Shown: one piece after another, positions 39,424 to 64,000 of the stretch
How the letters are laid out: each line of letters opens with the position of its first letter
Position numbering within the stretch: the first letter of the stretch is position 1
From: Malacoraja senta
Lineage: Eukaryota
Direction: 5' to 3'
DNA length: 64,000 nt
Assembly: GCA_038087875.1 (NCBI GenBank)
Contig: CM075988.1
Coordinates: forward strand, 11,844,001 to 11,908,000
Program-made: the position numbers and the translations under genes
Notes under the pieces: generated by a model
What the model was told of the DNA's origin: nothing
What the model saw: only the letters and a program-made list of their open reading frames with translations
Databases searched by the model: none

Positions 39424-39678
39424 TTTAGTTTAGAGATACAGCGCAGAAACGGGACCTTAGGCTGACTGAGTCTGTGCTGACCAGCGATCCCCATGCACTT
39501 ATACTATCCTACGGGTCAATTTACGGGTCAATTTACACGGGTCAATTTACAATTATACCAAGCCAATTAACCTACAAACTTGTATGCCTTTGGAGTGTGG
39601 GAGGAAACTGGAGAAAACCCAGGCAGCTTCTGGGGGAGAAGGTACAGAATCCGTATAGACAAAACCCGTAGTCAGGAT
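39424..39678 (-). mobile_element. V-SINE (5'-truncated) with internal (tacgggtcaatt) triplication
   Basis: Reverse SINE tail and body; tandem at ~39510-39550. Confidence 0.85.
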
Positions 39679-41699: not shown

Positions 41700-41957
41700 T
41701 AACTTACAAATTTTATTGGGAGAGGTGCAAGGTGTTGTGAGATGGAGGGTGGTGGGTGCCTGGAACATGTTGCCAGAGTGGTGGTGGAGGCAGATGCGAT
41801 AGTGGTGTTCAAGTGGCTTTTGGATAGGCACATGGATATGCAGGGACTGAAGGAATATGGATCATGTCCAGGCAGGTGAGAACAATTTATCATGGCATCA
41901 TGTTCTGCACAAACATTTTGGCCCGAAGGGCCTGTCCCTGTGCTGTGCTGTTCCATG
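41700..41957 (+). mobile_element. CR1 3' fragment
   Basis: tggaacatgttgccaga...ggcccgaagggcctgt. Confidence 0.85.
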
Positions 41958-42469
41958 TGTAGAAAGGAACAGCAGATACTGGTCTTCTGGTACTGTTCTA
42001 CATTCTAGGTTTTGTGAACTTATTTACTGATCATACTTTTAGACAGCCTGTCTCTTTGCAAAGCTGCGCTTGTAATTTCAAACCGATTACTGCTTTCAAT
42101 GTGCATTGGAACAGATGTTCTAAAGACTGGTTCTTGTTTTGAGTTAGTGGCTACTACTTCCATGTAATTTTGTAACCTATGAATGAATAATCTCTAACAC
42201 AATGAAATAAAATATTTGAATCATTCACCTGCATTTAACTTTCCCATAGGAATAGAATCCTAATTAAAATTAATGTTTTTTTTCCTCTGGTTCTCCATAA
42301 GCCTGACCACACATCAATTCTCTCTCACTCAGTCATGGGAGCCCATCTACCAGACACAACATAATGCCCAATGCTTGAGTGAGAGGCCACTCACTGACAA
42401 TATGTTTTTGTTGATAAACTTTCGATATTATTAATAGGCAGAACCTTCACTTAGTTTTATTTCTCAAAA

Positions 42470-42684
42470 TGACACAAAGTGCGGGCCTAACCCAGGCAGC
42501 ATCTTTGGAAAACACGGTTAGGTCATATTTTGGGCAGAAACCGTTCAGACCAGTCGGAGGAAGGGTCCTGAACTGAAAATCACCTGTCCATGTTCTCCAG
42601 AGATGCTGCCTGACCTGCTGAGTTACTCCAGCACTTTGTGTTCTTTGTGTATTAACCAGCATCTGCAGTTCCTTGTATCTACAC
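42470..42684. mobile_element. Penelope-tail hairpin element
   Basis: Inverted arms meeting at ttcagaccagtcggaggaagggtcc. Confidence 0.8.
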
Positions 42685-42800
42685 TTCTGTATACTTTTAT
42701 TTCTGTTTGTTTTCTTTATTTCCTTCTTTAGCTGTTCCATGCATTCACCTTTCTTTACTCCCACTTATAACCAACATATAGTATAGTATCCACCAATACA

Positions 42801-43097
42801 GGCCACGGTGGCGCAGCGGTAAAGTTGCTGCCTTACCGTGCTTACAACGCCAGAGACCCTGGTTCGATCCCAACTAGGGGTGCTGTCTGTTTGTACCTTC
42901 TCCCCATTACCGCATGGGTTTTCTCCAAGATCTTCGGTTTCATCCCACACTCTAAAGATGTACAGGTTTGTAGGTTAATTGGCTTGATATAAATGTAAAT
43001 TGTCCCTTGTGTGTGTAGGATAGTGTTAGTGCGGGGATTGCTGGTCGGTGCGGACAAAGTGGGCCGAAGGGCCTGTTTCCGCGCTATATCTCTGAAC
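42801..43097 (+). mobile_element. HE1/V-SINE-like SINE
   Basis: ggccacggtggcgcagcggta head, ggttcgatcc. Confidence 0.9.
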
Positions 43098-45369
43098 AAG
43101 TTGTTTTGGGTTTTCTTTGTATTTGATTTACCCATCTGAAGATATTCACCCTTTTGTTCGTCTCTAGCCTCTTGCTGTAACCCATAAAAGATCCTTTTTG
43201 GATCTGCACTATATATTTCACTTTTTTGTTCATGAGTGAACGATGTTGCCTGGGGGGGGGGGGGTTGGTGGGAGGGACAGGAGCAGCAGCCAGATACAAT
43301 ATATTGTGACGGCACTGAGCGATGCTGCTACGACAAAGTGGCTGGGAGTTCAATGCTACTGGAGTTCAGAGCATGAGTACAAAGATTAAAGTGAGTTGTT
43401 GAGATTCAAGTGTGGGCTGAAAGCGAGAGCTGGATTTTCAAATACTTGTCTGGTGCACCATAAGGTTGAAGGATTTTTAGGTGCCGAGGCATGATGAAAG
43501 TTTGAGAGCGAGGGAATGCTCCCACAGTTTTTGGTCCTCTAACCAAATATTTTGTTCTGTATTTTTGCACCTCTTATGCATTGTGGTTTATTTTGTCAGG
43601 AATCATCAAAAATCTCCAAGTTTCATGATGCCTTCCCAGCCGAGACATTCTTTATGTTCTCTCACTGTCTCGGTCTGCCTCACCCTCTCCATCACTCCCC
43701 ATCTGCTTTTCGTTAATGTCTCTCCAGCCACCGCTCCACCTCTCCTAACTCTTCATAATCGTCTGTTTGTCTTCTCGTGGCAGTTCTTCCTCTGCTGTTT
43801 CTTGATTCCTCGCTTGTTACGCCTCTCCATTGAAGCCCACTCATTGCATATACACTGCTTTTATCAAATTGATCATTTTCCTCTCACTCTTTGCCTCGTA
43901 ACATTTATTCAAATCTGTGCACCCTCTTTCTAGTATATAAATGTATAAGTTCAGGGGAGAAACAAGAAGTCTTAACTCAATACGTAACATTTTTCTTTAC
44001 TGTTAAACACTGTTTTCACCAGTTGTCATCATAACATTGATGTGGGCATTACGTTTATTGTGTTTGAAATACGCTGAGTTGTGGTAACATTGGCCAGGCA
44101 AAGTCTGTGGACTGCTCTGGAATTTCATTGGGGTTAATGGAGCAATGGAGTTGGAATGTATCCTTGACAAGGATTTAAGTTGTATTTGTATTTAAGTTGT
44201 AATACTCAGTGTATTTGATATATAAGGATATTTGTTTTACTTTCTACTATGGTGGTGGGTTTGTTGGTATTGTTTTGCATTGTACATATTATTCTTGTAA
44301 TAATTGATTAAATTTATTTTTGGTTAAAAAAAAAGGAGCAATGGTATGCCAGTAACACACTGGATGGGGGGTTAAATGCTGATTTCTGTGGCTCTGATCA
44401 ACAAGACACTGATAATTTACAACCCAAGCGTCGTGAAATGATTTGAGTCTTGGGTTGTAAAATCTTAAAAGGCATCTTTCCAAATGAAGCTGAACGTTTT
44501 ATGGGTAGGTTCGTGCACGCTTTGAATATTTTTAAATGTTTCATCTTGCATTGTCTGAGAAAACAAAATCATAGCCAGTTTTGAGGGATTTTATTGTTTT
44601 GTGCCCTTTTGCACTTTGCATTTGCCAGATTGGTTGCTGCATATATCCTTATTATGGCAGTTTATTTAACTATTTTTGGTTGGTGTAATATGATTTGCAG
44701 TGTCTAATCAATAAAAGATCTGTATTACTTTCACATATCCGGAGCACATACCATCTCAAGGGGTAGATTCAATGTTTCCTCAAGGGACAAAATAGAACAA
44801 GGGAGCACTATTAGAAATAAAAGGTCATGCATTTAAGACAGTCATGGCAAAATATTTTCTTTAAGGCTCACAAGAATTTGGAACTCTCTCCCTCAAATTG
44901 TGATGGAAGTAGTGTTTTAAATAATCTTAACGTTGAAGAAGAAAGATCCAAGACAATGTTGGGAGTGAAAGGTGACTGGGAAGTGGAAGTGAATGTAGAG
45001 TGGAGGTTTCATTGAATTGTAGAGCAGACTCAATTGTTCAAGTGGTTGATTCCTGATCCTAAATCATGTTTTTATGATCGCAGTATCCATTGGATAACAA
45101 AATGTTGTGGCTACAGGAAACTGGGCCCCCCTCCCCCCTGAAAATGCATGCACTCAACAGGTCAAACAGCACCTGTGAAGACAGGATTGTTAACATGATT
45201 CAGGCTGGTGATCTTGTCAGGAGCAGTTATTAATGAGTGAGCAATTTGAATAATTTTACTTATTTGACCGTATTCAGAACAATGTTTCAATTACAATGCC
45301 ACTGTTATAACCTAGAATTGCTTTTGGATGAACTAAATTTGTTGATGTCGATGTACATTTAACTATTGC

Positions 45370-45585
45370 TGAATTCTCCTCCTCAGAGGGCGGTGGAGGC
45401 CGGTTCTCTGGTTACTTTCAAGAGAGAGCTAGATTGGGCTCTTAAAGATAGGGGAGTCAGGGGATATGGGGAGAAGGCAGGAATGGGGTACTGATTGGGG
45501 ATGATCAGCCATGATCAAATTGAATGGTGGTGCTGGCTCGAAGGGCCGAATGGCCTACTCCTGCACCTATTGTCTATTGTCTATA
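45370..45585 (+). mobile_element. Young CR1 3' end
   Basis: ggctcgaagggccgaatggcctactcctgcacc(tattgtc)n. Confidence 0.9.
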
Positions 45586-46571
45586 AATATAATTAAAGCT
45601 GAATAGAAAATGTCCTCAGCATTTAGAGAAAGGCTATGGTCAATTGTCTGTAGTTTTGTTTTATAACTGTAGGTGTTAGAAACTAGCGATACAATGAACA
45701 GCAATTGGCTTTATTCCGGTACGACAATGAGCACCAACCTGGGAAAATAAAAGACAAAGATGAAAGATAACCTCTGAAGAGAGAGTCTTGGGAGTACCAT
45801 TAGCCTTGAGTGGAGGAATTCTAAAATATCAGTGGTGAATAATGCAATAGCAAATAGCTCTTTTGAAAAGGCGAGGTGAAGGCACTGTTGGATAAACTAT
45901 CTAATTCTGAAAAATCATATTTAATTATATTCAAATTTATGAAGGGAGTATTACCCATGTAATGAAAAGGATCCCAGGACTTTGCAACAGAAGTGTTCTT
46001 TCAATCAAACTATTGCAAGGCACAAACAGCAAGGAAGTTAATACTAGCTCCTCCACAACCTCGAAATAATAATATAAATCCAGTTTCAGATTGCATCATG
46101 CTAAATAGTACACAGTAATTGTATTGAGCTACAAGTGACTATTGATGGAGCGTGTAGAAGTAAATGAAATGGCTATCTGGAAAGGAAGACAGTGAAAAGA
46201 ATAAGAAAGTAGTTAGCTTCAATTGAAATGCTTCTAGGAACACAGGACAATAGGTCAAATGACCTATACTGTAAATTCTATGAATCAAAGTTCTTGGATA
46301 GGAAACTACATGGGCGGATATTGTTGAGGTCAGGAAATGAGTGCAATAAAATGCACAAGATGGAATTTCTAGAATGTGCTATAAATTTTAAATGGGGCTT
46401 TCCACCCACTAGCAGCCTAATTCATGCATTGGAGGTCTATTGTGTGGAAGGTTTGCTACACAGGGAAAGAGTTCAGATTGAATGTTTATTGCTGACAACT
46501 TGTAGCAACATTTAGAGAGGTAAACTCTCACAAGGGAGACCATTCCTCGATGCGGCACTCAGTCACACCCA

Positions 46572-46950
46572 GGATAGACACAAAAAGCTGGAGTAACTCA
46601 ACGGGACAGGCAGCATCTCTGGAAAGAAGGAATGGGTGACGTTTCGGGCCGAGACCCTTCTTCAAACTAGCCTGGGGAAAGAGAAACGAGAGATATAGAC
46701 AATGATGCAGAGCTATAAAGAACAGTGAATGAATGATATGCAAAAAAGTAACGTTGATAAAGGAAACTGGGCATTGTTAGCGGTTTGTTGGGTGAAAACG
46801 AGAAGCTAGTGCGACGAGGGCGGGGAAAGAGATGGAGAGAGATGGACTGCGGGGACAACTTGAAAGAGAAATCAAGATTCATACCACAGGGCTGTAAGCT
46901 GCCCAAGCACAATATGAGATGCTGTTCCTCCAATCTGCCTTTAGCCTCCA
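46572..46950 (-). mobile_element. Penelope-like 3' fragment
   Basis: EAKGRLEEQHLILCLGSLQPCGMN peptide plus tail. Confidence 0.85.
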
Positions 46951-47039
46951 TCATACCCAAAGCAGTCTCAGTTCTTATTCCCATTATTTTGCACATCTCT
47001 GCTCTGCTGGGGGAAAAAACCCCATCTCCCTAACATTAG

Positions 47040-47270
47040 TACACAAAGTGCTGGATTAACTCAGCGGGTCAGGCAGCATTTCTGGAGAATACACCTTACA
47101 CTTCCTGATGTCTGAGTCTCCCTCTCCTCTGTCTCTCAGTCTGAAGAAGGGTCTCGACCCAAAAAATCACCCATTCCTTCTCTCCAGAGATGCTGCCTGA
47201 CCCGTTGAGTTACCCCAGCAATTTGTGTCTATCTTCAGTGTAAACCAGCATCTGCAGTTCCTTCCTAAAC
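47040..47270. mobile_element. Penelope-tail hairpin element
   Basis: Inverted arms; ctgaagaagggtctcgaccc at 47141. Confidence 0.85.
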
Positions 47271-48036
47271 TGAGCATCATATGTTTTCCAGCTTCAGTTA
47301 TTCTGTTGCTTTCATCTTCCAACCTTAAGCTCTTTTAGTGCAGCATGTGACTTAATTCACATCTGTAATTTTAATTTGCTTTGTATCAAAGTGAATATCC
47401 TGTCTGATTCTTGCTCCTGTAAGAAAATGTGCCTAAACTGCACCTGATATTAATTTCCAAACTTTACGTAATATAATCACAATTGAGTTTTTGATTTCAT
47501 GAACTTTGGAGTTTTGGAAGGTTGTAAATCATGGAATTAGTCCTCAGCATGTACCTGTGCGTATAACATGTTAAATAGTTTCACCTGTAGTACAAAAATT
47601 TCCATGGCTTCCAGCTTTGAAATTGCTGTATTTTAAATGTCACAATGCTCAAATGCTGACTTTATATATTTCCCTTGAATTATTTAAGAAATGGAAGTTT
47701 ATCCAACACCAATCTTTCCAGTTTATGAGTAAAATTGATCAACCGAGCCAACCAACGTAATGTAATCCTTAAAATATATATTATTTGTAGACTTGATGTC
47801 AGAAACAAATTCCAAGCTGACAAAGGAAGGGGGGGCTGCTGTTAGTTCAGGAAATCTGGGAATAGACAATTTTATTTTTCTTTCCTGCTGTGTCCCTGCC
47901 AAAAGCAGCCAGTTCAGGAGGTTGAGAGGGGGAAAGCTGTTTCACGGATGGTACAAGGAGATGAAGGTGATTTGGTGTGGGTGAGGTGGGTCATGAAAGA
48001 TGTTGCGGTAGTGACAGAGCAACACGATGAGCAGGA

Positions 48037-48221
48037 AATAGACACAAAAGGCTGGAGTAACTCAGCGGGTCAGATAGCATCTCTGGAGAAAAGGAATAGG
48101 TGACCACACATGACACAAATGTCACCCATTCCTTCTCTACAGACATGCTGCCTGTCCCGCTGAGTTACTCCAGCCTTTTGTGTCTATCTTCGATTTTAAC
48201 CAGCATCTGGTTTCTCCCTAC
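48037..48221. mobile_element. Penelope-tail hairpin with the core deleted
   Basis: Arms meet at ggtgac...gtcacc; flanks gatgagc(a/t)gg. Confidence 0.8.
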
Positions 48222-48435
48222 GCAGGATGAGCTGGGAGTTATGGTCTTTGACCAACATGTCTCCACATCCACAACAGTGTCATTCTCAGTGTAGACTGGT
48301 ATCAAGCGACATTGTGTCATAGCACCGATATCTTTCTCTATCTTACTTGCGACATCGCACCCCCACTATCTGGGCAATGCACTTTAGAAGGAAAAGTGTT
48401 AAAAAACTTAATGTTTAAATCAATCATTGTAACAT

Positions 48436-48752
48436 CAGTTCAGTTTATTGTCACATGTACATAAGGTACGGTGAAAAGCTTTTGTTGCATGCTATCCAGT
48501 CAGCAGAAAGACAATACATGATTACAATCAAGCCATTTACAGTGTCGAGATATGTAGAAGAATAGAAAAATAGGTGCAGGAGTACGCCATTCGGCCCTTT
48601 GAGCCAGCACTGTCATTCAATATGATCATGGCTGATCATCTAAAATCAGTACCCCGTTTCCGTTTTTTCCCCATACGATAACATTTGGTGCAAGGTAAAG
48701 CCAGTAAAGTCCGATCAAAGATCGTCCAAGGGTCACCAATGAAGTAGATAGT
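48436..48752 (-). mobile_element. Rex1-like tail interrupted by a CR1 tail (~48552-48675)
   Basis: Homologous to 58285-58590 and 26160-26245; insert ataggtgcaggagtacgccattcggccc. Confidence 0.7.
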
Positions 48753-48959
48753 ATTGGAGGAGGATCTTTAATATAACCTTTCCTTATTTTTATTTAAACA
48801 GCCAAGCAACAGTGCTGTAAAATAAAGGCACATTATCTGCTCATTATCACAGCGATGTTAATAAAAACTTGTACAGAGATGTTAATGGGAACTTGTTGTC
48901 GTTAAATGTCTTCCTTTTAACATTTTTGCCATTATTTCATCAATTTTCCACTTCCCAAT

Positions 48960-49415
48960 TTACTTGGGAGGAAGAGTGAGCCATGGATTCGTTACCGGCA
49001 AGTTGTCATCTGTATTCTCGAGTCTGACTCCAGAGACGAAAGCACAAAACTAGGCTAATGTTCTGTTAAGTACTGAGGAAACACAGCCTGTCACACATAC
49101 TGACTCTTGGGTGAGACATCAGGCAAAGACTTCTTAGGTGATTGTAAAAGATCCCACGATGTTACTCTGAGAAAGAGCAAGATAGCTATTCTGGGCACCA
49201 GAGCCAGGATTTTTTTCCTCAATCACTGCAACTGTAACATAAAGGCACATTATCTGCTCATTATCACAGAGATGTTAATGGGAACTTGTAGCTAAATTTG
49301 TTGCCAGATTTCCTGCATTAAAACAGCGACTGCACTTAATATGTACTTGATCATCAATGATAAGATGCTTTGGGTTACATTGAACATGAAAGCTTTGCAT
49401 AAATGTTGGTTTATC
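48960..49415 (+). mobile_element. Ancient Deu-domain SINE (SacSINE1/AmnSINE1 superfamily-like)
   Basis: Ordered recalled motifs actccagagac, agcacaaaactaggct, agtactgagg, gtaaaagatccca, ttatctgctcattatcac, tttcctgcatta, gctttggg. Confidence 0.65.
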
Positions 49416-49660
49416 TATGCGATATTTGATGGCTGAATAGCTTGATGTATTAAAATTTTAATATTTTAATAAGAGGAGTGAGGGACTTGTGAATGGGAAT
49501 TGAATATACTGAAGAGGGGAAAGGAACCGGGTAACTGGGCAAGTGAGAGATGATGGAAGAAATGGGTGCACAGGGGAATGGGGGAGGAATGGTGTTCATG
49601 TGAATAGAACAAAATGGCACAGAATTCTCAGAGAGGAAGAGTAATCTGTTTGCACTATAG

Positions 49661-50087
49661 GTACACAAAAATGCTGGAGAAACTCAGCGGGTGCAGCAGC
49701 ATCTATAGAGCGAAGGAAATAGGCAACATTTCGGGCCGAAACCCTTCTTCAGACTGATAGGGGGTGGGGAGAAGAAAGGAAAAAAGGAAAAAAGGCGGAG
49801 GAGGAGCCCGAGGGCTGGGGGATGGGAGGAGACAACCAGAGCGCTGATGAAGGGGAGGGGACAGCAAGGGCTAGCAGAGTTGGGAGAACTCAATGTTCAT
49901 GCCCCCAGGATGTAGAGTGCCCAAGCAGAATATGAGGTGCATTTCCTCCAATACACAAAAATGCTGAAGAAACTCAGCGGGTGCAGCAGCATCTATGGAG
50001 CGAAGGAAATAGGCAACGTTTCGGGCCGAAACCCTTCTTCAGACTGATAGGGGTGGGGAGAAGAAAGGAAAAAAGGCAGAGGAGGAA
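49661..50087 (-). mobile_element. Tandem dimer of young Penelope 3' ends
   Basis: Copies at 49661-49951 and 49952-50087, both closely matching 59455-59749; 9-bp flanking repeat gcactatag (49652-49660, 50088-50096). Confidence 0.92.
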
Positions 50088-50799
50088 GCACTATAGTTTG
50101 GTGGCTTTGAGATTTGATAGAAACACAAGTAAATGGATTTCATCATAACCTAATTCTTTTCATACTTATTAGTTTCCACTCTCAGTAAACCATGGTACTT
50201 TCGAAACATTATTCGGCTCTGTTCATAGACCTTTTTCCCTTTCTTAAGAAAACATGAGGACATAAAATATCTGAGCAGGCGTAGGCGACATGATAGCTTA
50301 AAGCTTTTCCAGCATTTATTAAGATCACGTCCCGTCCGATCTTTTCCCCAGTTACCCATTTCCCCCTATTCCCTATAACTTGCCATGCACTAGCCTAACA
50401 TATTTAATAATTCACGACAGCTGTCTTTGGTTGAGAATTCCAAGGCTACACAAGTCATTGAGAGAAAAATAATCTTTCTGTTTAAAGAGTGACCCTTAAT
50501 TGAAACTATACCTCCTCATTTCCCCGAAGAGTGGAAACATGCATTCAGCATCTTTCCTGTTAAGCTCTGCCAGAATCCTTTGTATTTGAGTAAGAGCACC
50601 ACTTATTTGTTTAAACTCCAAGGGGTAAAGAGGTCCAACCTGCACATTTCATCTCATGTTATAGCCTCTTTAAATCCACAAGGAACTCCAATAAATTAGT
50701 CAAGTGTTCTATTTGACAGCTGAAGTGCTGGGAAGCTAATCATTGTGGAGAAATAAACATGATTTTATTGTAAGATTCTAAAAACAGCGCATGAACAAC

Positions 50800-51075
50800 C
50801 CAAGATAGACACAAAATGCTGGAGTAACTCAGCGGGTCAGGCAGCATCTCTGGAGAACATGATGGGTGACATTTCGGGTCAAGAAGAAGTCTGAAGAAGG
50901 GTCCCGATTGGAAACGTCACCTATTCATTTTCTCCAGAGATGCTGCCTGACCTGTTGAGTTACTCGTTGTTTAAGAAGGAACTGCAGATGTTGGAATTTT
51001 GTCTACCTGCTGAATTGCTCCATCATTTTGAGTCTATCTTTGATATAAACCAGGGTCTGCAGTTCCTTATTGTTA
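50800..51075. mobile_element. Penelope-tail hairpin with nested fragment
   Basis: Inverted arms; ctgaagaagggtcccgattggaaacgtc. Confidence 0.8.
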
Positions 51076-51795
51076 CATGGACAACCCGTGTTCATTTTGC
51101 TTCACTTTCAAAATGAAAGGTCTTCTCTCCTCACTCTGTATTCCCCTGCCTGTCCAGTCAAGATTGGCATCTTGCCATATTGAAAATGTAAGGCTGCACA
51201 CTAATGCACAGTGCCGTGGTATCAAACCATTAATGTATTATGCCACTGCCTGTTATTTAATTGTCATAAATTGGATAATCCTGTTGATTAAAAAAACACG
51301 GTAACCAAGGCCTTATTATGAATAAGCCAATATTCATTTTGCTGGTACTTTGACAATTATTGATCTATCTGGTATAGGAAGCTCATTTGATAGTTTTATC
51401 CTATATTGGAAGCCAGACATAGTTATACATTTATATCATCCGTTATTATCTGGGAGACTACAGTTATATTGGTCTGGAATTTGTGCTCAGTCGCAGGCAC
51501 TGATTGCAGAGTCAAATGCATTTTGTGCTGAAGTATCAAAATTCATTACAAGGCACAATTATAGACACAACTTTGTTCCCCTGCAGGACAGTTTAGGACC
51601 TAATGATTCACTCTGCAATCAAACCCAGGTCTCCTCATTTTGTAGATGGCAAGTTAATGCCTGCTGTTTTCTTCCAAGCATTAATAATTGTTTGTGTTAA
51701 TTTCTGTGCATGAATGAATCAAATCTTAATAAAGAGTTATGAGATGATGGGATAGGAGAGCTGCTAATTTACTTTATCCAGTAACCAAAAGTGTT

Positions 51796-51994
51796 GGGCA
51801 CAACAAGCTGGAGTAACTCGGCGGGTCAGACAGCGTCTCTGGAGAAAAGGAATAGGTGATGTTTGGGGTCGAGACCCGTCATCAGACACGACAACTGTTC
51901 CTTTTCTCCAGGATGCTGTCTGTGACCCGCTGAGTTACTCCAGCTTTTTGTGTCCATCTTCAGTTTAAACCAGCATTTGCTGTTCCTTCCTAAT
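51796..51994. mobile_element. Penelope-tail hairpin element
   Basis: Inverted arms; 10-bp flanking repeat caaaagtgtt (51786-51795, 51995-52004). Confidence 0.85.
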
Positions 51995-53525
51995 CAAAAG
52001 TGTTAAACAGGTGTAGAAAATTAAATTGTGTCATACATTATAACTGTGAAGAAAATACATTAAAATTAAAGGGAAAATGCAAGCAGTTATAATTTATAAG
52101 ATGAGAGGATCAAAAGTAAACTAATAGAAAAATGAATTAATCCTTGGTGAAGATAAAAAGGGGCTTACAATGACAGATATCACAGCCCAGTTAAGGTGAT
52201 AAGAGTTATATTTTTTCCGAAATATGAAAATGGGATTTTTTTTAATTTCAGTAAGTAAAAAATGTAATATCTGATAAACCAGTTAATAAAGATGTTCCAG
52301 AATTGAAAAGGGCGATCAGGGAACTGAACAAATTAGTTTTGCTGTTAATTTATGTTGGTACCTGCACCTGGAGTTTGTAAAGAGATGAAAAGAAGTATAA
52401 AATGGATAGTCCTGTACAACAGGATATTGTACAAGCTGGACAGCGATATAAAAGAGGATTAGCCCGGGCATAAACATGAACCTATTTTAGGATCAGAAGC
52501 TCATATTAGCCCAGATTTTGCTATCAAGAGGAGAACGAACATATTCAATATTGGCATCGAGGAAAGTGGCCAACTTTGCACCAAGTACCAAGAGAACCAA
52601 GCTTGGAGGTGTGCATTTTTCCTCTCCATTATTCGAGTTACTGACAGGCATCAACTGTTTGGGATCTCTGGTATTCAGAAAACAATGATGTCATCAAGCA
52701 GGAGAGGGAGTAACCAATCAACCTCATTGCAGCAAATCAGACGAAAATAAAACAGGACTTTTAACTAAAAAATGTTTTACAGCGGGCAAAATGAAAACTA
52801 AACACATGAACTTTAGGTAGAAATGGTAAAAGATTTATTATTCATGTAGAAACAAGGAACTGCAGATGCTGCTTTACAAAAAAAAAGACACTAATAGAGT
52901 GCTAGTATAACTCAGCGGGTCAAGCAGCATCTCGAGAGAACATGGGTGACATTTTGGGTCAGGACCCTTCACATTATTTATATTGTACAATACAATCATT
53001 TGTAACAGGTAATCCCTCTGAACAATGTATGAGACTGAAATCTCAAGGAATGGTTACCCAGATATGTAAAATGCCAATAATGAGGAATTTAAACCTTGCT
53101 TCTATGCACAACAGAATATTACATTCTCGGTTTTACAAACGATGCCAAAATTCTGCTGCCCTACAGCCAAATGTTAAATGAGGAATTGTCAGCTATCATT
53201 TGTAGCACGTCAGCGGGTAGTGAGATCCTGTGAGTGTGCATTCAAAGGCGGAAGCCTGAGTCATACGGGAAGTCGGATGTCACCACAGCTGACTGACTCG
53301 CTGCATCACCCAGCAGTAGACCACAGGCTTCCTGAGGAGAGGGCTGGATGCACCCTGCATCTGGCACCTCAACTTTACACCAGGGAGGACTGGCAGACGA
53401 ATGACTCTCTCTTAATATTTGTTTGTTATGTTGCATTGTTTTAATATCAGTATCTTAATGAACTTTTAACAGAACATTTCTTACTTTTCAAACTTAGTAA
53501 CACGTGGGTTGTTGAAAGCCTTGGA

Positions 53526-53806
53526 GTTTAGTTTAGTTTAGAGATACATCACGGAAACAGGCCAGATCGCCATACATTAACATTATCCTACACACACTAG
53601 GGACAATTTACAATTATATCAAGCCGATCAACCTACAAACCTGTATGTCTTTTGAGTGTGGGAGGAAACCAGAGATCCCGGAGAAAACTTATGCAGGTCA
53701 CAGAGAGAACACACAAACTCTACACAGACAGCATCTGTAGTCAGGATTGAACCCGGGTCTCTGGTGCTGTAAGCAGCAACTTTACCGCTGCACCACTGTG
53801 CTGCCC
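53526..53806 (-). mobile_element. HE1/V-SINE-like SINE
   Basis: Reverse complement of the SINE consensus. Confidence 0.9.
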
Positions 53807-53897
53807 AACGAGTTATAGAGTCATGGAGAATCATACTGTTGTTAGCCCAGAAATGAGCCCTTTGGCTCACTATATCCATGATAACCTTGGTGCCGAA

Positions 53898-54250
53898 GGT
53901 AGAAACAAACTGCCGGAGCAACTCAGCAGGTCAGGCAACATCTCTGTAGAAAGGGAACAGGTGACATTTTGGGGCGGAACGCCTTTTCAGACTGAAGGTA
54001 GAGGGGGAGGAGGGATCTGGAGGTGGGAATAGGCCAGGGCTATAGATGACCAAGAAAATGTGGAGCCCATAATGGCCCCTTTGTTGGCAGGGGAAGAGGT
54101 GATAATGAGGGGATATAGGGATGCGAACAGTGGAACTAGTAGGATGACCAGGGGAGGGGGGGAGAGAGGGAATGCAGGATATGCTTGAAATTAGAGAAAT
54201 CAACATCAATACTGCCCAAACAAAATATGAGGTGCTATCCCTCCAATTAT
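53898..54250 (-). mobile_element. Penelope-like 3' fragment
   Basis: Homologous to 30415-30855. Confidence 0.8.
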
Positions 54251-54451
54251 GTTTATCTTTGTTTGGTCTGTATCCATCTGTGCCTTACTTATTCAAGTGA
54301 CAGTCAAAATGTCTCTGAAATGTAATGATCCCATCACCACCTCTAGCAGCACCTCTAGAACATAGAACAGTATTGCATAGGACCATGACCTTAGGCCCAT
54401 GAAGTCTGTGCTGAACATGATGCCAAATTAAATCGATCCTTTCCGCCTGCA

Positions 54452-55371
54452 TTTTAATGATTTGGACGAGGGGATTGAAGGCTTTGTGGCAAAGTTTGTG
54501 GATGTTACGAAAATAGGTGGAGGGGCAGGTAGTGTCGAGAAAGCAAAAGGACTTGGACAGGTTGGGAGAGTGGGTAGATAACTGGCAGATGGAATATCGT
54601 GTAGCAAAGTATGGAGCCATGCATTTTGGTAGTAGGAATAAAGGTGTAGACTACTGTAATTTCTAAATGGGGTGAGAATCCAGAAATTGGAGGTGCAACG
54701 GGACTTGGGAGTGCTGGTACAGGATTCCCATAAAGTTAATCTGCAAGTCGAATCAGTCGTAAAGAAAGCAAACTCAATGCTAGCATTCATTTCAAGAAAA
54801 GCATGGATGTAATGTTGAGGCTTTATAAGGTGCTGGTAAGGCCACATTTGGAATAATGTAAGCAATTTTGGGCACCAGATCTAGGGAAAGATGTGCTGGC
54901 TCTGGAGAGGGTTCAGAGGGCGTTTACAAGATTGATGGCAGGAATTAGTAGGTTAACCTATAATGAGTGTTTGTCAGCACTGGGCCTGTACTCACTGGAG
55001 TTTAGAAGAATGAGGGGGGACCTTTGAAACTTACAGAATAGTGAAAGGCTTGGACAGAGTGGATGTGGAGAGGATGTTTCCACTTGTGGGAGAGCCCAGG
55101 ACTAGAGGTCATGGCCTCAGATTAAAAGGATGTTCTTTTAGGAAGGAAATGCGGAGAAATGTATTTCATCAGAGGGTGGTGAATCTGTGGAATTGTTTTC
55201 CACAGAAGGCCGTGGAGGCCATCAGTGGATATTTTTAAGGCAGAGATAGATAGATTAGTATGGGTGTCAGAGGTTATGGGGTTAGGAGAGATAGATCAGC
55301 CATGATTGAATGGCAGAATAGACTTGATGGGCCGAATGGCCTAATTCTACTCCTATCCCTTCTGATCTTAT
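54452..55371 (+). mobile_element. CR1 ORF2 3' fragment inserted into an older minus-strand CR1 tail (54355-54451, 55372 onward)
   Basis: NDLDEGIEGFVAKFVD, KGLDRVDVERMFPLVGE...QRVVNLWN peptides; 3' UTR. Confidence 0.9.
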
Positions 55372-56441
55372 GATGCATTCCTTCAATTCATCTGTCCATC
55401 CGAAAGCCGCGTGGACTGCACTATCATATGAGCTTCCACCACCACACTTCGAGGTGCATTCCAGGTGCATACCACTTTCTGTGTTAAAAAAAAAAAAACT
55501 TTCCCCTCTGATCTGCTTTACACCACCTCCCTCTTATCTTAAACAGATACCCTCTTGATAACACCACCTTTGGAGGGTTGAGGGTGCGGGGTGTTAATTC
55601 CTGACCATCTACCTTACCAATGTCTCTCATAACTTTATAAATTACCCCCTCAACCAACCTAACTCCACGGAAAACAAGATGGTCTATCCAATCTCTCCCC
55701 ATCTGAAGAGGTCTGAAGAAAACTTCTTCAGTCTGAAAAAGTGTCTCGACCTGAAACGTCACCTATTCCTTTTCTCCAGAAATGCTGCTGGAGTTGCTCC
55801 ACCTTTTTGTGTCTGTCCTCCCCATAATAAGATCTACAATCTTGAGATGATGTCCAAGGCAGTCAGGCTGTTCTGTCATGGGACCTCGAGATATGCTGTC
55901 TGAAGCCTTGCTCTATTCGAAGCCTGCTGTGCTTTGCCTGACTGCAGTCAGGAATGGAGAATCAGGTCGACTGATTCTGTGTGTCCAGAGAAAGGAACAG
56001 CAGGTGGGCAGGGAACATAGGTTGTGAGTCTGGGCACTGGGCAGAATGCAAGGTCATCCAGCTCATTTAGTACAAATACAGAATTCTCAACTTTGTGCCT
56101 GCTCACTATTTTCCCACAGTTCAACAGAAGAACCTTGCAATCTACTGCCTCTCAGTGGGGAACAAGATACTGGTAATAACTTCTTGTTGTTATGCCTAAC
56201 CTAGGGAGTCCAGAAGGTGTTTTCTGATATTCTCTGCAGTCATCATGAGAACTGGTCGTCCCAATGTTATTTCTCACCAAAAAAAGAAATACGGGCCATT
56301 GTTTCATTGTTTGCATATACTTTAAACTATGGTTATCCATCAGGAATTTTGCCCCAAACAGTATTGTTATAATTAATTGATGAACAAAGAGCAAAAATCA
56401 AACTTGCATTAGAGAAACACATCATCATCAAAACCATGAAG

Positions 56442-56565
56442 GTCTGAAGAAGGGTCCCAACCTGAAACGTCACCTGCCCATTTTCTCCAGGGGTGCTGCA
56501 TCATTTACTCCATCATTATGTGTCTATCTTTGATATAAATCACCGTCTGCAGTGCGCTTTTATTA
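56442..56565 (+). mobile_element. Penelope-tail monomer beginning 2 nt before the core
   Basis: gtctgaagaagggtcccaacctgaaacgtcacct; flanking repeat catgaag (56435-56441, 56566-56572). Confidence 0.8.
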
Positions 56566-57295
56566 CATGAAGAGCTGGACATCCATTTTGCATCATTTGT
56601 TATGCAATGGAACTTCATTAGAAACCCAATTATCTGACACGCACATGCATTGTTGCTGCTGCATGTTTGCCGTCATGCCGATGGTGTATCTGGCATTGAG
56701 GATGACGTGGCTTGCTCACCATGTCACGACCTGGAAATTTGGATCAACGCTGACTTTGAATGTGATCCCAGGTTTTGTCCAGTTTGTAACGTTGCCAAAA
56801 TGAAACACAAATGCATTCAAGAAACGGTGATGAATGTCATCATTGGAGCGTTTTGGACAAATGATAGAACATTGATTATAAAAGGGCACATTGGGTAAGA
56901 GGGAGGATGTTGCAAATATATAATTCCAGTGGGTATGAGTGGATGCGTATATTGGGAGGGAACACGATGGATGACATGGGATACAATTTGGCATAATTTA
57001 CATGATTTTCTACCACTCACGTGGATTAAAAACAATACAGGTTACAACAGGCTTGAAGCAGAGTCCTGAATGAACAAAATATCAAGTCAAAGAGTCATAT
57101 AGCTTGGAAACAGACCGTTCGTCGAATTCTTCCACGCCGACCAAAATGACCCATTTCAGCCAGTCGCATTTGCCCGAATTTGGCCCGTATCCCTCCAAAC
57201 CTTTCGTATCCATGCACCCGTCCAAGTGTTCTTTAAATGTTAGTTGGAGATTAGTTCGAAATATGGTTAGAGGTTTACTGAGTCAGTCCTTTTAC

Positions 57296-57426
57296 ATTGA
57301 AAACTGGAGTCCTTGCAAAGCAGAGGATGGACGTAAATTGCAGATGATGTCGCTGAATATTGAAAACTGGAGTCTTTGCAAAGCAGAGGATGGAGGTAAA
57401 TTGCAAGTGATGTCGCTGAATATTGA
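57296..57426 (+). repeat. 63-bp tandem duplication (2.1 copies)
   Basis: attgaaaactggagtc...gtcgctgaat repeated with period 63. Confidence 0.95.
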
Positions 57427-58284
57427 GGAACATAGCTTTTGTCACGACTCTGCTTATCTGTCAGGATTCGAGCCTTGCTCCTTGTCATCCGTACAATGAA
57501 TGTGTAAGCAACACCTGACAATAAAAGTGTAATTGTGACTCTTTAATTTGGCCATAAATCCTGGTGACGGCTGAAGGATTTGATATACTGTGATTGGGCA
57601 GATTGTACTGATGAACCAAATCGTGCTACAGTACACGATTGCACCATTCTCCTTACCATGACACTGGATGACTTTGTGTTGGTGCTGGTTGACAGAATGA
57701 GCATTGTTTTATAGACGATTAGCAGATGTATTTCCAGCATCTTGATATGTCATACCAACAGTGCTCTGCTCCATTGCCACTCTTTTAAAATCTCTTGCAT
57801 TCAGTTAACATTGACTGGAGAAAATAATCAATTTAATTCGGCAAATGCAAGTTATATTTTTAATTATCCTATCAAGTTAAATTAATTCTGTATCAATATC
57901 AGCTTGCATTTCTCAAGAGCCTTTAATGTGGGAAACATTTTGAGTATCTTCCAAAAAAGTTTATTACAACAAACTCAACCCTGATTGCATTTCAAAAGAG
58001 TTCCATTAGCCCCAAAGTCTTTGCAATGTCCCAAGACTATAGCTGACATTAAATTAATTCATACATTTTTAATACCAATAATGATATAGTTATTGTGGAA
58101 TAAAGCCCCTGTATAATGATAGTACTTTAGAGTACCTGTATCCGACTTACCCACCTGTATGAATGCAGAGGAGAAGTCTTCAGTTAGTGTCCCTTGTAGA
58201 AACGAAGAACTGCTGGAGTAAGTGCTGGAGTAAGTGCTGGAGTAAGCCAAAGGGTCAGGAAGCATCTCTGCAGAATGTGGATGA

Positions 58285-58590
58285 TTTAGTTTAGATTATT
58301 ATCACGTGCACTGAGGTACGGTGAAAAGCTTTTTTTGTTCCGGGCAGCGGACAAACTTTCCAGCGGACAAACAGATACAGGATAAAGGGAATAAATGTTA
58401 GTGCAAGATGAAGTCCAGTAAAGTCCGATTAAAGATCGTCCGAGGGTGTCCAATGAGGTTGGTGATAGTTCAGTAGTTGGTGATAGGGTGGTTCAGTTGC
58501 CTGATAACAGCTGGGAAGAACTGTTCTTGAATTTGGAGGTAAGAATTTTCACACTTGTACGTCTTGCCTGATGGGAGAGGGGAGAAGAGA
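58285..58590 (-). mobile_element. Rex1/Babar-like LINE 3' fragment
   Basis: tcacgtgcactgaggtacggtgaaaagc tail; ttgcctgataacagctgggaagaa; cctgatgggagagg. Confidence 0.7.
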
Positions 58591-58598
58591 ATAGGTGT

Positions 58599-59750
58599 CC
58601 ATTTCCGACACTTCCCTACCATTCCTTGACCTCACTATCTCCATCGCAGGTGATAGACTTCTTACCGACATCCATTACAAACCAACCGACTCCCATGGCT
58701 ATCTGGACTACACTTCTTCCAACCCTGCTTCCTGTAAGGACTCCATCCCCCACTCCCAATTCCTCCGTCTACGCCGCATCTGCTCCCAGGATGAGGCATT
58801 CCACACCAGGGCATCCGAAATGTCCTCATTCTTCAGGGAACGAGGGTTCCCCTCCTCCACCATAGATGAGGCTCGCACCAGGGTCTCTGCCATACCCCGC
58901 AATACTGCTCTCTCTCCCCATCCCCCCACTCACAACAAGGGCAGAGTCCCCCTAGTCCTCACCTTTCACCCCACCAGCCGTCACATACAACAAGTGATCC
59001 TCCGTCAGTTTTGCCACCTCCAACGTGACCCCACCACTCGCCACATCTTCCCATCTCCCCCCATGTCTGCCTTCTGCATAGACCGCTCCCTCCGTAACTC
59101 CCTTGTCAATTCTTCCCTTCCCTCCCGTACCACCCTCCCCCGGGTACTTTCCCTTGCAACCGCAAGAGATGCAACACTTGTCCCTTCACCTCCCCCCTCG
59201 ACTCCATTCAAGGACCTAAGCAGTTGTTCCAGGTGCGACAGAGGTTCACCTGCATTTCCTCCAACCTCATCTATTGCATCCGCTGCTCTAGATGTCAGCT
59301 GATCTACATCGGTGAGACCAAGCCGAATACCTCCGGTCGGTCTTCAATAACCAACCTGACCTCCCGGTGGCTCAGCACTTCAACTCCCCCTCCCATTCCA
59401 TATCTGACCTCTCTGTCCTGGGTCTCCTCCATGGCCACAGCGAGCAACACCGGAAATTGGAGCAAATGCACCTCGTATTCCGCTTGGGCAGTCTACATCC
59501 TGGGGGCATGAACATTGAATTCTCCCAATTCTGCTAGCCCTTGCTGTCCCCTCCCCTTCATCAGCCCTCTAGTTGTCTCCTCCCATCCCCCAGCCCTCGG
59601 GCTCCTCCTCCGCCTTTTTTCCTTTTTTCCTTTCTTCTCCCCACCCCCTATCAGTCTGAAGAAGGGTTTCGGCCCGAAACGTTGCCTATTTCCTTCGCTC
59701 CATAGATGCTGCTGCACCCGCTGAGTTTCTCCAGCATTTTTGTGTACCTT
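58599..59750 (+). mobile_element. 5'-truncated Penelope-like element (Neptune-type): RT C-terminus/thumb, Cys linker, GIY-YIG endonuclease, tail
   Basis: LPFLDL, YKPTDSHGYLDYTSS; after a frameshift CNRKRCNTC and NLIYCIRCSRCQLIYIGETK; 13-bp flanking repeat agagaataggtgt (58586-58598, 59751-59763). Confidence 0.93.
59656..59683 (+). ncRNA. Minimal hammerhead-ribozyme-like motif in the Penelope tail
   Basis: CUGAAGA-A-GGGU(UUCG)GCCC-GAAA-CG-UU; identical cores at 4907-4934 (+) and 50015-50042 (-); helix I is weak. Confidence 0.6.
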
Positions 59751-60928
59751 AGAGAATAGGTGTTGTTTTGGTCGGGACCCTTCTTCAGAAGAGCTGCCTG
59801 ACGTGGGATTACTCCAGCACTTTGTGTCAGTGTATGTACCTTCGTAGTTTTGACCAGTTCTGCTGGGCTATTTCAGAGAATCAATCACATTAATAGACTG
59901 GTAGGTCTTGAGGCACACGGATGCTAGAACAGGGAAGGAGTGAAGATTTCCTTTCTTTGAGGGCAATCATGTAAGTTTCCCAGCTGCTGTGGTAGGTTTC
60001 AAATTCATGTCGAAGGATTAAAACTGCATGCCTCTGAATACTAGTCCAGCAACTGAACCGCTGTGCTATGATTCCACATGACAAGGTCATTGCACTCCTA
60101 GTCTGGAGGTTGTCAAGACTTAACACCAGAAATTTGAAATATGAGAAATAGGTTAATTATTAATATATAAACAAAGGTATAAGCTCCCTCTGTTTTTTGT
60201 TGTGATCAGAGGTATAGTTGATGGGGATTGTATTGTCTTTCCTCTTTTGCCATCGAAATCCACCACTGATTACTTTCAGGTCAGCTGAAGCTTTCCCGGA
60301 AGTGGAGTAGTCTTTATCTGCATTTTTGCAACAGTGAACTGCAGGACCCGTCTTATATTTGCTCCCTTTCCTGCACTGCTGGTGTTTCATCTCTTTCAGC
60401 TATTCCATCTGACTGCAGGGTTTAATTAACACTAATAGATGCCAAATGTGTTTTCCTTTTGGTGTGAATTGAAACATTGAGTTACTGGGTGAAACTCTCC
60501 ATAGCTATTTTCTTTTAGAAGTTTACAACCTACAATGCTAAAAAAAAAGAGGATTTCTTTGTCATTCTATAAATTTGGACTAGTTTCAAGTCTTGATCCC
60601 AGAGATAAAAGCACTGCATTACTGACCCAGTTTGCCAGTCCGTCTCCATTAATTCGAGTAAGTGCTCTGGTATGTGAACCGATTGCAAAGGAAGCAGGCA
60701 AATTGTATGACAAAGATTGGGCAAATAGATCAAAATGAAAATGTCTGGAGATTGTGGGCAATGAGAAAATGACCCTGCCATATTGAGAGGATTGGGGAAA
60801 AACAGGTAAGCAAAAATAAACAATATGAAGCTGGACAGGCAAGGAACTGTAGATGCTGCAATCTTGAGCAAACTCAAAGTGCTGGAGTAACTCAGCTGGT
60901 CAGGCAGCATCTGTGAAGAGTATGGATA

Positions 60929-61684
60929 ATCAGAATCAGAATCACACTTTATTCACCAAGTATGTTTTGCAACATACGAGGAATTTCATTGGCCAGGTCA
61001 GTCATTCAATTAAAAGTAACAGATCACTTCAAAAACACATTTTAACATGAACATCCGCCACAGTGACTCCTACACATTCTGCACTGTGATGGAAGGCGAA
61101 ATAAAGTTCAAGTCCTTCCCTTAGTTCTTCCTCGGTCGTGGGCCTCGAGCCCCCGTTGATGGGTTGACCTTGACTCCCGTAGCCGGAGGTGTTCGGGCTC
61201 TCCGCGTCGAGGCGATCAAGCTCCCGCATCGGGGAGATGTCGGCTTCCCTGCGCCGGGCGATCGAAACTCACGTCAGAGTTGATCGAACCTTCCGCGACG
61301 TTGGAGCTCCCGACTCGGCCTCACCCGAGACTGCGAGCCCTTGGTGTTGATTCCATGGTGGTCATGGTGGGAGCGATCCCAGGCAAGGGATCAGCTCCGA
61401 TGTTAAGTCCGCGCCCCGCGGTGGGGCTCACGACAGTCCGTGGAGGCTTCCAGCTCCATCGATGGTAGGCCGCAGAGCCCGGAGAATGTGATCCGAAAAT
61501 TAATCACATCTCCAGGAAGGTAAGAGCTTGAAAAAAAGTCCCCCCCGATCCCCTCCCCCCTCCCCCCAAATAAAAAAACCCGAAGAACATTAAAACTAAA
61601 TTTTTTAACAAACTAAAAAATAACAAAAGGAGTGAAAAGACAAACAGACTGCCGGCAGGGCAGCCATCTCCACGGCACCCCTGG
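60929..61684 (-). mobile_element. CpG-rich non-autonomous retroposon with (CTGATT)n tail
   Basis: Flanking repeat tggata (60923-60928, 61685-61690); minus-strand aataaa then tail; splits a Penelope-tail unit. Confidence 0.7.
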
Positions 61685-61721
61685 TGGATAGGCAACGTTT
61701 CAGATTTTTCAGAATGTTCTA

Positions 61722-62028
61722 GTGTGGCACGGTGGCGCAGCAGCAGAGTTGCTGCCTCACAGCGTCAAACGCCCAGGTTCCTGACTATGGGTGCTGTCTG
61801 TATGGAGTTTGTACGTTCGGTCCTTTGTGGGTTTTCTCTGGGAGCTCCGGTTTCCTCCCACACTCAAAAGACATATAGATTTGTTGGTGAATTGGCTTGG
61901 TAAAATTGTAAAAATTGTCACTGGAGTGTGTAGGATAGTGATAATGTGCAGGGATCATTGGTCAGCGCGGACTCGGTGGGCCGAAGGGCCTGTTTCCGTG
62001 TTGTATCTCCAAGCTAAACTAAACTAAA
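61722..62028 (+). mobile_element. HE1/V-SINE-like SINE
   Basis: ggcacggtggcgcagc head; gggccgaagggcctgtttcc; (AAACT)n. Confidence 0.9.
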
Positions 62029-62864
62029 TCTGAGGAATGGTCCCACCCCAAAAACGTTACCTATCCATTGTATCCATGTTTTAGCCATGTTGTATCCATG
62101 CACTTAGTGTTTTGATAAAGAAAATACAAATTAGCATCTGGGAAGTGACAGGAAGCCTGATGATGGCTTGCGTAAATGGTCCTCACTCAGAATAGATAAA
62201 TGCAGGAAACCATCCAAATATTCAACCACTTTAGGTACTGATCAGGTGAGAGCACAGGAAGGTATGCAAAAGACTACTCTGTCATGAACCATCAGATACT
62301 GAATTTCACATCAGATCCAAAGGACCATCTGTTGTAAATTTACAGCAGCTGGTCAATTATAAGCACTGCATAAACTTTTACTTTATCTTGATCAGGTCCC
62401 AGTCCGACTGCTTGAGTTCTGTTGGAAGCAAAGCGGAAAGAGTACATTGGGTTGCAAAATTGTTTTTAGTGAATTAGCTGACAATTTTTGCTTGAAATAA
62501 AAAGGGCAGCTAATGCAAGTGCCAATTGAATAACCGAGACACAAGAGACTGCAGATTCTGGCATTTGGAGCAACAAACAAGCTGCTGCTTCAAGCAACGT
62601 CTGTGGACGGAAATGAATGGTCAATATTTTGGGTCGAATCTCTTCAGGATCATTCCATCTGCAGATGCTGTTCAACCTATTAAGTTCCTTTCAGGAGATT
62701 GTTTGTTTCTGTCAATTATATTCACCTGTCTGCAAAATGTTTGATTAAAGTGTTTGATTATGATGTCGGAAAGGTAATGAAAGACTTTGAGAATATAACA
62801 TGGAAGAAACCCCCAAAATATTTTTATAAACATTTAAAGCTCCAAATCTTTTCATAAGCATTGT

Positions 62865-63100
62865 TTTAAGGTGAGAGGGTCAAAGTTTAAAGGAAATATG
62901 AAGGAACAAATGTTTACACAGAGTGCTGGTGATGGTGGTTGAGGCAGATATGGTAGTAGCATTTAAGAGACTTTTGGATAGGCATATGGATGTGCCAGGA
63001 ATGGAGGGATATGAATTATGTGCAGGCAGATAAGAGTTGGTATTGCAATCATGTTCGGCACATAATTATGGGCTGAAAGATCTGTTCTTGTGCTGTTGTG
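62865..63100 (+). mobile_element. CR1 3' fragment
   Basis: aaggtgagagggtcaaagtttaaagg...gggctgaaagatctgtt. Confidence 0.85.
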
Positions 63101-63171
63101 AAAGGACCAAAGATTTGGATCAAATATGGGTAACTGGTGACAATTCAGAACAAAAAGGGAAATATTGTTGT

Positions 63172-63266
63172 TAGATACAAAGTGTTGGAGTAACTCAACG
63201 GGTCAGACAGCATCTCTGGACAAAAAGGTTAGGTGACGTTCTAGGTTGAGACCCTTCTTCAGACTG
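63172..63266 (-). mobile_element. Penelope-tail monomer
   Basis: ggtgacgttctaggttgagacccttcttcagact. Confidence 0.8.
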
Positions 63267-64000
63267 AGACATATATTTCTTCAGACATATATTATTGTTT
63301 GCAACGGGTACAACTGAAGATTACCCAGTAAACTTGCAAATGGAGAATTGTTAATATTGTAGTACAAAAGACGGGAGTTAAAAAAACACGATTACAATGC
63401 AGGTGGAAGGGAGGTTGGTATCACTGAAAGTTAATAGGTCATTTGGTCTTGATGGGTTTCATCCTTCTCTGCTGAATAAAGCTGAGTTGTGCGTTGTAGA
63501 ACCTGTGACCACAATTGCTTCTTGGATGTGATGGTGTTTCAAGTTAAGAAGTTATTAAGTCATTCGTAACTTTGAGAAGTTTGAGCTCACTCGAACATAA
63601 ACCCAATCAGTTTAGGAAAGGCAAATTGACAAGAACAAAATTAACTCTAACATGGAGAAGTGTAAGGTAGTAACAAACAATCAGCATTCTTTATGCTAAA
63701 AGGCCAATTGAGATGGACAAGATTGATTTGACGAGGTGGTTGCTATAAACTGAGACAACAGATATTGAGTTAATGGATTTTTAAAAAGTATTTGGTAAAG
63801 TACCAGCCAATTGACAGACTTGACAGACGAATTAGTGGTAATTCAGGGACAAAGCTCATATAAAAGGGCCTAATTTGCATAATAATGCCAATAATTTATG
63901 TGGAATTTTAGCATAGTGCAACATATAAGTTGTGATAGACACAAAGTGCTGGAGTAATTCAACGAGACAAGCAGTATCTCTGGAGAGAAGGAGTGGATGA

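Follow-up and report, generated by a model that had tools for sequence, protein, structure and literature searches.

Several described systems come close to the sequence considered here. Cervera and De la Pena 2014 (PMC4209133) define the minimal hammerheads (min-HHR) of metazoan Penelope-like elements, a class whose traits are an extra nucleotide, a G10.1-C11.1 pair and a palindrome, and whose published consensus (their Fig. S3) is CUGANGAH-G..C-GAAAN..NUH. Most of these motifs have a helix I of 3-6 bp, with 2-bp cases among them, their activity is described as low even in dimers, and thousands of dispersed copies are reported from coelacanth and Xenopus, and pairs on opposite strands were noted as well; neither the 40 species of Fig. 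S3 nor Table S1 of that work include a cartilaginous fish. A second system is PAc, a Poseidon element of Anolis carolinensis (Frangieh et al. 2024, PMC11167929), whose hammerhead, the one vertebrate Penelope ribozyme with a cleavage test in the papers covered, cleaved only with the element's own protein and for which two internal reverse-transcription start sites and priming on both strands were shown. Also close are the non-LTR retrozymes, which occur as tandem units in one chondrichthyan genome (bioRxiv 10.64898/2026.07.22.740005). In the open literature that we covered, this single genome in the 2026 preprint, possibly carrying the same family, was the only mention of the motif in sharks, skates and rays, and a search that excluded most subscription papers and Repbase gave no paper on the tail family described below.

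The hammerhead motif and its host element

We analysed a 64-kb window (the whole stretch of Malacoraja senta DNA under study), in which the plus strand at 59656-59683 reads CUGAAGA-A-GGGU-UUCG-GCCC-GAAA-CG-UU, exactly as the original prediction gave it. All 12/12 core positions (CUGANGA box, GAAA box and UH site) are kept, and the palindrome ACGU stands in place of helix III. As in min-HHR (PMC4209133) the motif is type I, with CUGANGA followed by an extra nucleotide, a G10.1-C11.1 pair, a palindromic 15.2-16.2 and no helix III, and it occupies a terminal-repeat position with mostly single, dispersed copies. Both of its helices are short for the published range, helix II having 4 bp and helix I 2 bp, and copy density in this window is high. 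The extra A between positions 9 and 10.1 had been listed as a caveat; it is present at 59663 and in 8/8 structure-descriptor matches in the window, and is instead a conserved and defining trait of the published class (PMC4209133). Across copies the G10.1-C11.1 pair is GC in 17/23, GU in 5/23 and AU in 1/23, and positions 15.2-16.2 are CG in 11/23 copies, with 10 of the remaining 12 being CpG-decay forms. Helix I, originally put at 2-4 bp, is short as stated and lies at the lower limit given, with 2 bp in 7 of the 8 descriptor matches. At 59656 the two pairs are U-G then G-C with the third position mismatched, and the copies in general show U-G or U-A, then G-C, then a mismatched third pair.

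The identification as a Penelope-type minimal hammerhead is borne out by the fit to the published consensus (PMC4209133) and by the position in the tail of a Penelope-like element. Judged from the sequence, the motif at 59656 is very probably (roughly 0.88) the minimal hammerhead of a Penelope-like retrotransposon terminal repeat, with the copies in the window as its fossils. That a repeat tail merely resembles the hammerhead consensus by chance is scarcely credible, since the tail has all 12 core positions together with the extra nucleotide, the G10.1-C11.1 pair and the palindrome, exactly where Penelope-like elements carry the motif. In favour of chance are the single related family to which all matches belong, so that their counts are not independent, and the lack of any matching Rfam hammerhead model: no Rfam family reached its gathering score anywhere in the 64-kb window, and the hammerhead models gave no match to 59560-59800 even at E<=10. 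The motif is real and of an already described class, to which it adds a member from cartilaginous fish DNA.

The host element (Table 1) is flanked by a 13-bp direct repeat (58586-58598 and 59751-59763) that occurs only twice in the window. Its ORF carries two frameshifts and a stop near 59532, with the motif ~120 nt 3' of this stop and the endonuclease end, and tblastn to a whale shark protein (P0001) aligned 58598-59242, 59140-59340 and 59322-59555 in three frames. Pfam GIY-YIG is weak on the window fragment (E 0.035, below cut-off) and above cut-off in P0001, which also has a partial RVT_1. The RT core is absent from the element, lost by truncation, leaving the thumb region and the endonuclease. 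Among protein relatives, 17 of the 20 longer ones (of 442 candidates) carry shark or ray annotations. The 11 best share 62-67% identity over 85-100% of the query, and identity peaks at 78% in a skate protein that covers 60% of the query, so that the DNA probably comes from a skate or another elasmobranch. Ray and skate gene models named as host proteins (P0003, P0005 and P0015: a kinase-domain protein, a chitinase-domain protein and a nicotinamide riboside kinase) contain pieces of the element protein, and these may be exonised fragments or annotation artefacts.

Upstream of GIY-YIG the ORF at 59098-59511 contains the linker CNRKRCNTC, which is of the CX2-5CxxC type. Because such a linker marks the Neptune or Nematis clades (PMC8557442), and because Neptune and Poseidon are the Penelope-like groups widespread in vertebrates (bioRxiv 10.64898/2026.07.22.740005), the element is likely to belong to Neptune as judged from this motif. 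Compared with Neptune-clade elements (Arkhipova 2006, via PMC8557442) only the last 1.15 kb is present here, and Nematis is possible. Like PAc, it is a vertebrate Penelope-like element whose ribozyme lies shortly before two alternative 3' end points, which bound an optional tail; unlike PAc, a Poseidon element with in vitro data (PMC11167929), it has the Neptune/Nematis linker. The 13-bp target of this young element belongs to an older, decayed head-to-head tail pair (59751-59828), so that the insertion of the young element hit an older copy of the same kind.

Table 1. Coordinates of the motif, its host element and representative members of the tail family in the window
Feature	Position	Strand	Basis or remark
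Whole tail family: 58 tail matches in 38 clusters	1510..63999	both	profile search
Two short tails inverted head to head, only one with the extension	3935..4147		
Short subfamily-A copy, core intact (C3 at 4907), begins 3 nt before core	4903..5000	+	
Subfamily-B copy with an intact core and G-U pairs that weaken stem II	28533..28641	+	
Truncated subfamily-B element: endonuclease end 38412-38654 and tail (+), inverted tail copy at 5' end	38245..38940		
Further head-to-head pairs of the 14	47041-47270, 48038-48224		
Partial tandem of two subfamily-A tails, cores 50042 and 49752, 290 nt apart	49659..50076	-	
5'-truncated Penelope-like element, 1,152 bp, young subfamily A	58599..59750	+	13-bp direct repeat; tblastn in three frames
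End of the disrupted ORF, with RT thumb region, CX4CxxC linker and a GIY-YIG-type endonuclease (CxxC, HxxxxxH)	58598..59534	+	
Pyrimidine-rich untranslated stretch, ends TCAGT directly before core	59535..59655	+	
Minimal type I hammerhead motif	59656..59685	+	sequence, core alignment, structure descriptor
Helix I, 2 bp: 5' strand and 3' strand	59654-59655, 59684-85	+	
CUGAAGA box	59656-62	+	C3 = 59656
Unpaired extra A, between positions 9 and 10.1	59663	+	
Stem II, 4 bp, UUCG loop, closed by G10.1-C11.1	59664-75	+	
GAAA box (G12-A15.1)	59676-79	+	
CG; U16.1; U17	59680-81; 59682; 59683	+	cut would fall after 59683
Remaining tail: pyrimidine run, small conserved hairpin, short 3' end without the ~35-nt extension	59686..59750	+	

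Copies and decay in the tail family

The profile search returned 58 tail matches, 26 on the plus and 32 on the minus strand, against 0 in each of 10 block shuffles; the profile was built from 13 window copies, and these seeds are among the 58. A loose pattern (CTGANGA-N10..30-GAAA) matched 18 times where 4.9 were expected, a number reached by 0/100 shuffles, and the full structure descriptor found 8 sites in the window compared with a mean of 0.017 and a maximum of 1 in 60 Markov nulls. All 8/8 descriptor matches belong to the Penelope tail family, and no unrelated hammerhead family was found in the window. The core is covered by 29/58 copies, with all 12 core positions kept in 13/29 and broken in 16/29. 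The proposed spacing of one ribozyme-like module per 2-3 kb holds for core-covering copies (29 in 64 kb). Only 8 copies pass the full descriptor, and both G10.1-C11.1 and ACGU are kept by only 4 of these 8 (4907, 28537, 50042 and 59656).

The nine sister units that had been named are all members of the family and most of them are damaged. On the plus strand, helix I is broken and helix III reads TA in 13761, the palindrome is gone from 33249, 47141 carries G12A and 56444 carries C11.1U, while 28537 keeps the core with two additional G-U pairs in stem II. On the minus strand we found G8A and G12A at 4030, G12A at 9930, C3U at 46665 and three changes (at C11.1, G12 and A13) at 63262. The three closest relatives of the 59656 motif, 4907(+), 49752(-) and 50042(-), were absent from the original prediction. 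The latter two form the only close same-strand pair with two 12/12 cores, 49752 having lost its palindrome. Further tails joined to endonuclease ends lie at 38412-38940, 30415-30863 and 46574-46948. The inverted tail copy at the 5' end of the 38245-38940 element has its core at 38375(-), and the endonuclease end of this element matches P0001 (tblastn E 1e-27), which links subfamily B with the same protein family.

Sorting by eye gave four subfamilies among 23 of 26 full-length copies; a mis-aligned arm and the duplicated pair near 26.6 kb were left out. Relative to the majority of their own subfamily, copies diverge by 1.2%, 7.5%, 9.7% and 14.8%, with group D mixed, and the tails of the four subfamilies are 71-81% alike. 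The CpG that holds G12 is intact in 10/26 copies and the other three CpGs in 16/26, 11/25 and 15/24; the core decays after insertion, with G12 lost at CpG rates. Contigs of four runs, taken as DNA and from three organisms, aligned to 59480-59780 in numbers of 58,996-108,189 per run, which are not a copy number and suggest a very large family. In metagenome contigs a protein scan gave 74 pattern matches and 0 confirmed relatives, and viral contigs gave 0 matches to the DNA pattern. Five metagenome loci matched the DNA pattern; 0/5 pass the hammerhead descriptor and they were treated as chance.

Ends and arrangement of the copies

Copies occur singly with truncated 5' ends, as one partial tandem and as inverted pairs joined head to head, and the tail has two alternative 3' ends ~35 nt apart. 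Among 14 scoreable head-to-head pairs the ~35-nt extension is found on exactly one arm in 12, on neither in 2 and on both in 0 (binomial p 0.004), with one of the 12 one-arm pairs (36788/36864) uncertain owing to a neighbouring copy. This one-arm extension fits two start sites used on opposite strands, and the both-strand priming of PAc (PMC11167929) fits the head-to-head pairs of the window family. Penelope-like elements are described as carrying inverted 5' copies and, at one end, a 30-40-bp tail (PMC8557442); 5' truncation, a partial tandem, an inverted 5' copy and a one-end tail are all four seen here. Like non-LTR retrozymes (bioRxiv 10.64898/2026.07.22.740005; PMC7229834) the copies are non-coding hammerhead pieces related to Penelope terminal repeats; unlike retrozymes, which are tandem with a ribozyme per unit, they are single or in inverted pairs, with one two-unit partial tandem (49659-50076). 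Two arrangements were observed besides. A near-identical inverted pair at 24863-25051 occurs again at 26578-26766, 1,715 bp on, and may reflect a local duplication or an assembly repeat, and 36486-37074 holds three head-to-head pairs within 600 bp, two of them from an older, more diverged tail family.

We then considered where the copies begin. In the 27 copies reaching C3, homology ends 0-8 nt upstream in 17 and runs further in 10; this sample omits duplicate and mis-aligned arms, and only 7 reference copies served to check the upstream homology. At 7105, 13761 and 56444 a target duplication directly adjoins the core. In the four-run contigs loose ends lie at 59650-59655 and depth rises over 59645-59677 without a step at the cut site; part of this rise stems from the subfamilies having diverged in the upstream tract. 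Nor is there an excess of 5' ends at the cut site in the window, where 4/58 alignments start <=3 nt from it, one of them at the window edge. This absence rules against templates cut at the ribozyme site, and the templates were therefore likely uncut RNA, as for the Anolis element in vitro (PMC11167929).

The stop at the upstream edge of the ribozyme may reflect a roadblock, an RNA 5' end at the initiator-like TCAGT or a link to an intron acceptor. The TCAGT before the core resembles the initiator consensus. The pyrimidine fraction is 0.93 at -33..-4 before the core, and a tract of pyrimidines that closes with YAG, one base ahead of the core, looks splice-acceptor-like (59535-59655; also 33249, 47141, 53990, 9930 and 46665); in subfamily-B copies a donor-like GT lies at the ORF stop (near 38655 and 30702). 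In Drosophila virilis Penelope an intron ends at 491 (PMC2377424) and C3 is at 496 (PMC4209133 Table S1), with the start site ~120 nt upstream of the intron acceptor (PMC2377424). A D. virilis-like intron acceptor at the core edge is not supported by the present data: no common upstream exon is joined to the core in any window copy, and no GT..AG skip ending at the core is present among the 15 joints listed (of 80) from the four-run contigs. At several junctions (4030/4051, 55733 and 63262) parts of the first core bases recur as short inverted or repeated pieces, as if the enzyme had jumped there. An apparent 'AGA' subfamily with a different helix I was rejected for 7105 and 13761, the bases there belonging to the target duplication.

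The same edge raises the question as to whether the short copies form a separate, SINE-like element that is non-autonomous, with an RNA that starts at the core edge and a unit of ~95-135 nt copied by the Neptune protein. The loss of homology just upstream of C3, the target duplications abutting the core, the loose ends in contigs of 4/4 DNA runs and the resemblance of TCAGT to an initiator would all agree with this. We consider it unlikely: each of the four subfamilies has the edge, and its position shifts by several bases, which equally fits a stop while copying a long RNA, the depth step is partly due to divergence of the upstream tract, and upstream homology was compared with only 7 reference copies. 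At the equivalent position the D. virilis element has an intron acceptor, its start lying well upstream (PMC2377424).

In our preferred explanation the copies scattered over the window are truncated products of insertion, which have likely decayed without selection since landing. By analogy with the Anolis element (PMC11167929), the element protein would nick target DNA on both strands and reverse transcription would start at two sites within the tail, ~60-100 nt 3' of the ribozyme. Mostly uncut RNA would be copied, and frequent stops just past the core would give tail copies of ~95-135 nt containing the whole motif.

Conservation, folding and possible activity

In order to address whether the core is conserved beyond the rest of the tail, as had been proposed, we compared the subfamily majorities. 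At non-CpG columns 0/10 core columns differ against 20/67 others (one-sided p 0.039); with CpG columns included the numbers are 1/11 and 26/76 (p 0.085), which is not significant, and the comparison is biased by the requirement that alignments cover the core. This invariance weakly favours selection acting on the master elements. Inside the subfamilies, mutations were seen at 9/230 non-CpG core sites compared with 67/1065 (p 0.21) and 117/1522 (p 0.039) at other sites, so that there may be weak selection on inserted copies as well, a signal which the core-coverage requirement biases in the same direction. Stem II was said to be preserved across subfamilies, and the U-A versus U-G difference at 10.4/11.4 is real; it is a one-sided change and not covariation, as is the U-A versus U-G difference at helix I position 2.1/1.1. 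Two-sided changes occur in 4/14 pairs (5 cells, in 20 hand-picked copies) and could be decay; the two-sided measures were reached by 9-21 of 500 shuffles, which is not a probability value. No compensatory change in the stems was found at the level of the four subfamilies, which are too close for such changes to be judged. Covariation in stem II is thus not upheld, the subfamily differences being one-sided and the 5 two-sided cells inseparable from decay.

In folding predictions the monomer was no more stable than shuffled sequences (z 0.13). For 60 nt counted from C3, the predicted probability of stem II is <=0.06 in 7/8 copies and 0.62 in 13761, using a predictor uncalibrated on active minimal hammerheads; the low values arise because G8-G10.3 pair with the pyrimidine run just 3' of the cut site. 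This competing hairpin (59661-59696) is predicted in subfamilies A and B and could represent an off state. As free RNA the motif would be inactive according to these predictions, because helix III is absent, helix I has 2 bp and the pyrimidine run pairs with the core. Cleavage is predicted only as a dimer in tandem element transcripts with the element protein as chaperone, and the core would be retained by selection on active master elements and not on the copies in the host. A more speculative reading, to which we give less credence than to the SINE-like element above, joins a start site at TCAGT, the hammerhead and the RT-start hairpin into a module of ~100-135 nt that would spread SINE-like via the Neptune protein, the hairpin holding the ribozyme off until the protein binds. 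If true, elasmobranch genomes would hold very many protein-switchable ribozyme cassettes.

The motif might also be vestigial, non-catalytic even in active elements and retained as part of a protein-binding or promoter region. Such a reading shares the identification made above and differs on activity alone; we regard it as a possibility worth keeping in view, if tentatively. A helix I of 2 bp, at the lower edge of published examples, might mean that even the masters carry a vestige, and the predicted sequestration of the core, the absence of subfamily-level covariation and the good conservation of the tail downstream of the core point the same way. So do two other systems, the Anolis ribozyme being unnecessary for insertion in vitro (PMC11167929) and Naiad elements thriving without a ribozyme (PMC8557442). 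Against it, the 10/10 non-CpG core columns are unchanged across four subfamilies with clearly diverged tails, the youngest subfamily retains the full core, and a 2-bp helix I is found in the published set, for example in Drosophila virilis and Culex (PMC4209133).

An effect on transcripts crossing the region, which the original prediction had raised, is unsupported. Copies would have to cut host transcripts as dimers between copies or with element protein bound, and what favours this is the high density of core-covering copies, the four canonical copies with one close same-strand pair, and the ~59,000-108,000 contigs per run, which suggest a very large family and are not a copy number. We judge a host effect very unlikely, as most copies are dead, with G12 decaying at CpG rates, inverted tail pairs are predicted to fold into long duplexes, and the one close intact same-strand pair (50042/49752) has a predicted inter-copy helix III probability of 0.000. 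RNA-seq showed no ends at the Anolis ribozyme site (PMC11167929). No host exon was identified among the 507/507 stop-to-stop frames of >=48 aa compared with Pfam, a search that short exons would escape; the sole match was a LINE-type RT at 22614-23744. This match is a 377-aa open frame on the plus strand with RVT_1 (E 6.7e-22), likely a LINE fragment.

The preferred reading, of a Penelope-type minimal hammerhead whose copies are fossils, extends the 2014 class to cartilaginous fish, which are missing from the species list of PMC4209133, and shows the density that such tails can reach; it gives no hint of a role in the host. According to PMC8557442 no function of Penelope hammerheads has been settled. 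An abundant family with a very young subfamily is suited to asking whether cut RNA ever serves as template, which the window suggests it does not, and why copying stops at the upstream edge of the ribozyme. The clustering of 5' ends at this edge is the one point that merits a genome-wide look.
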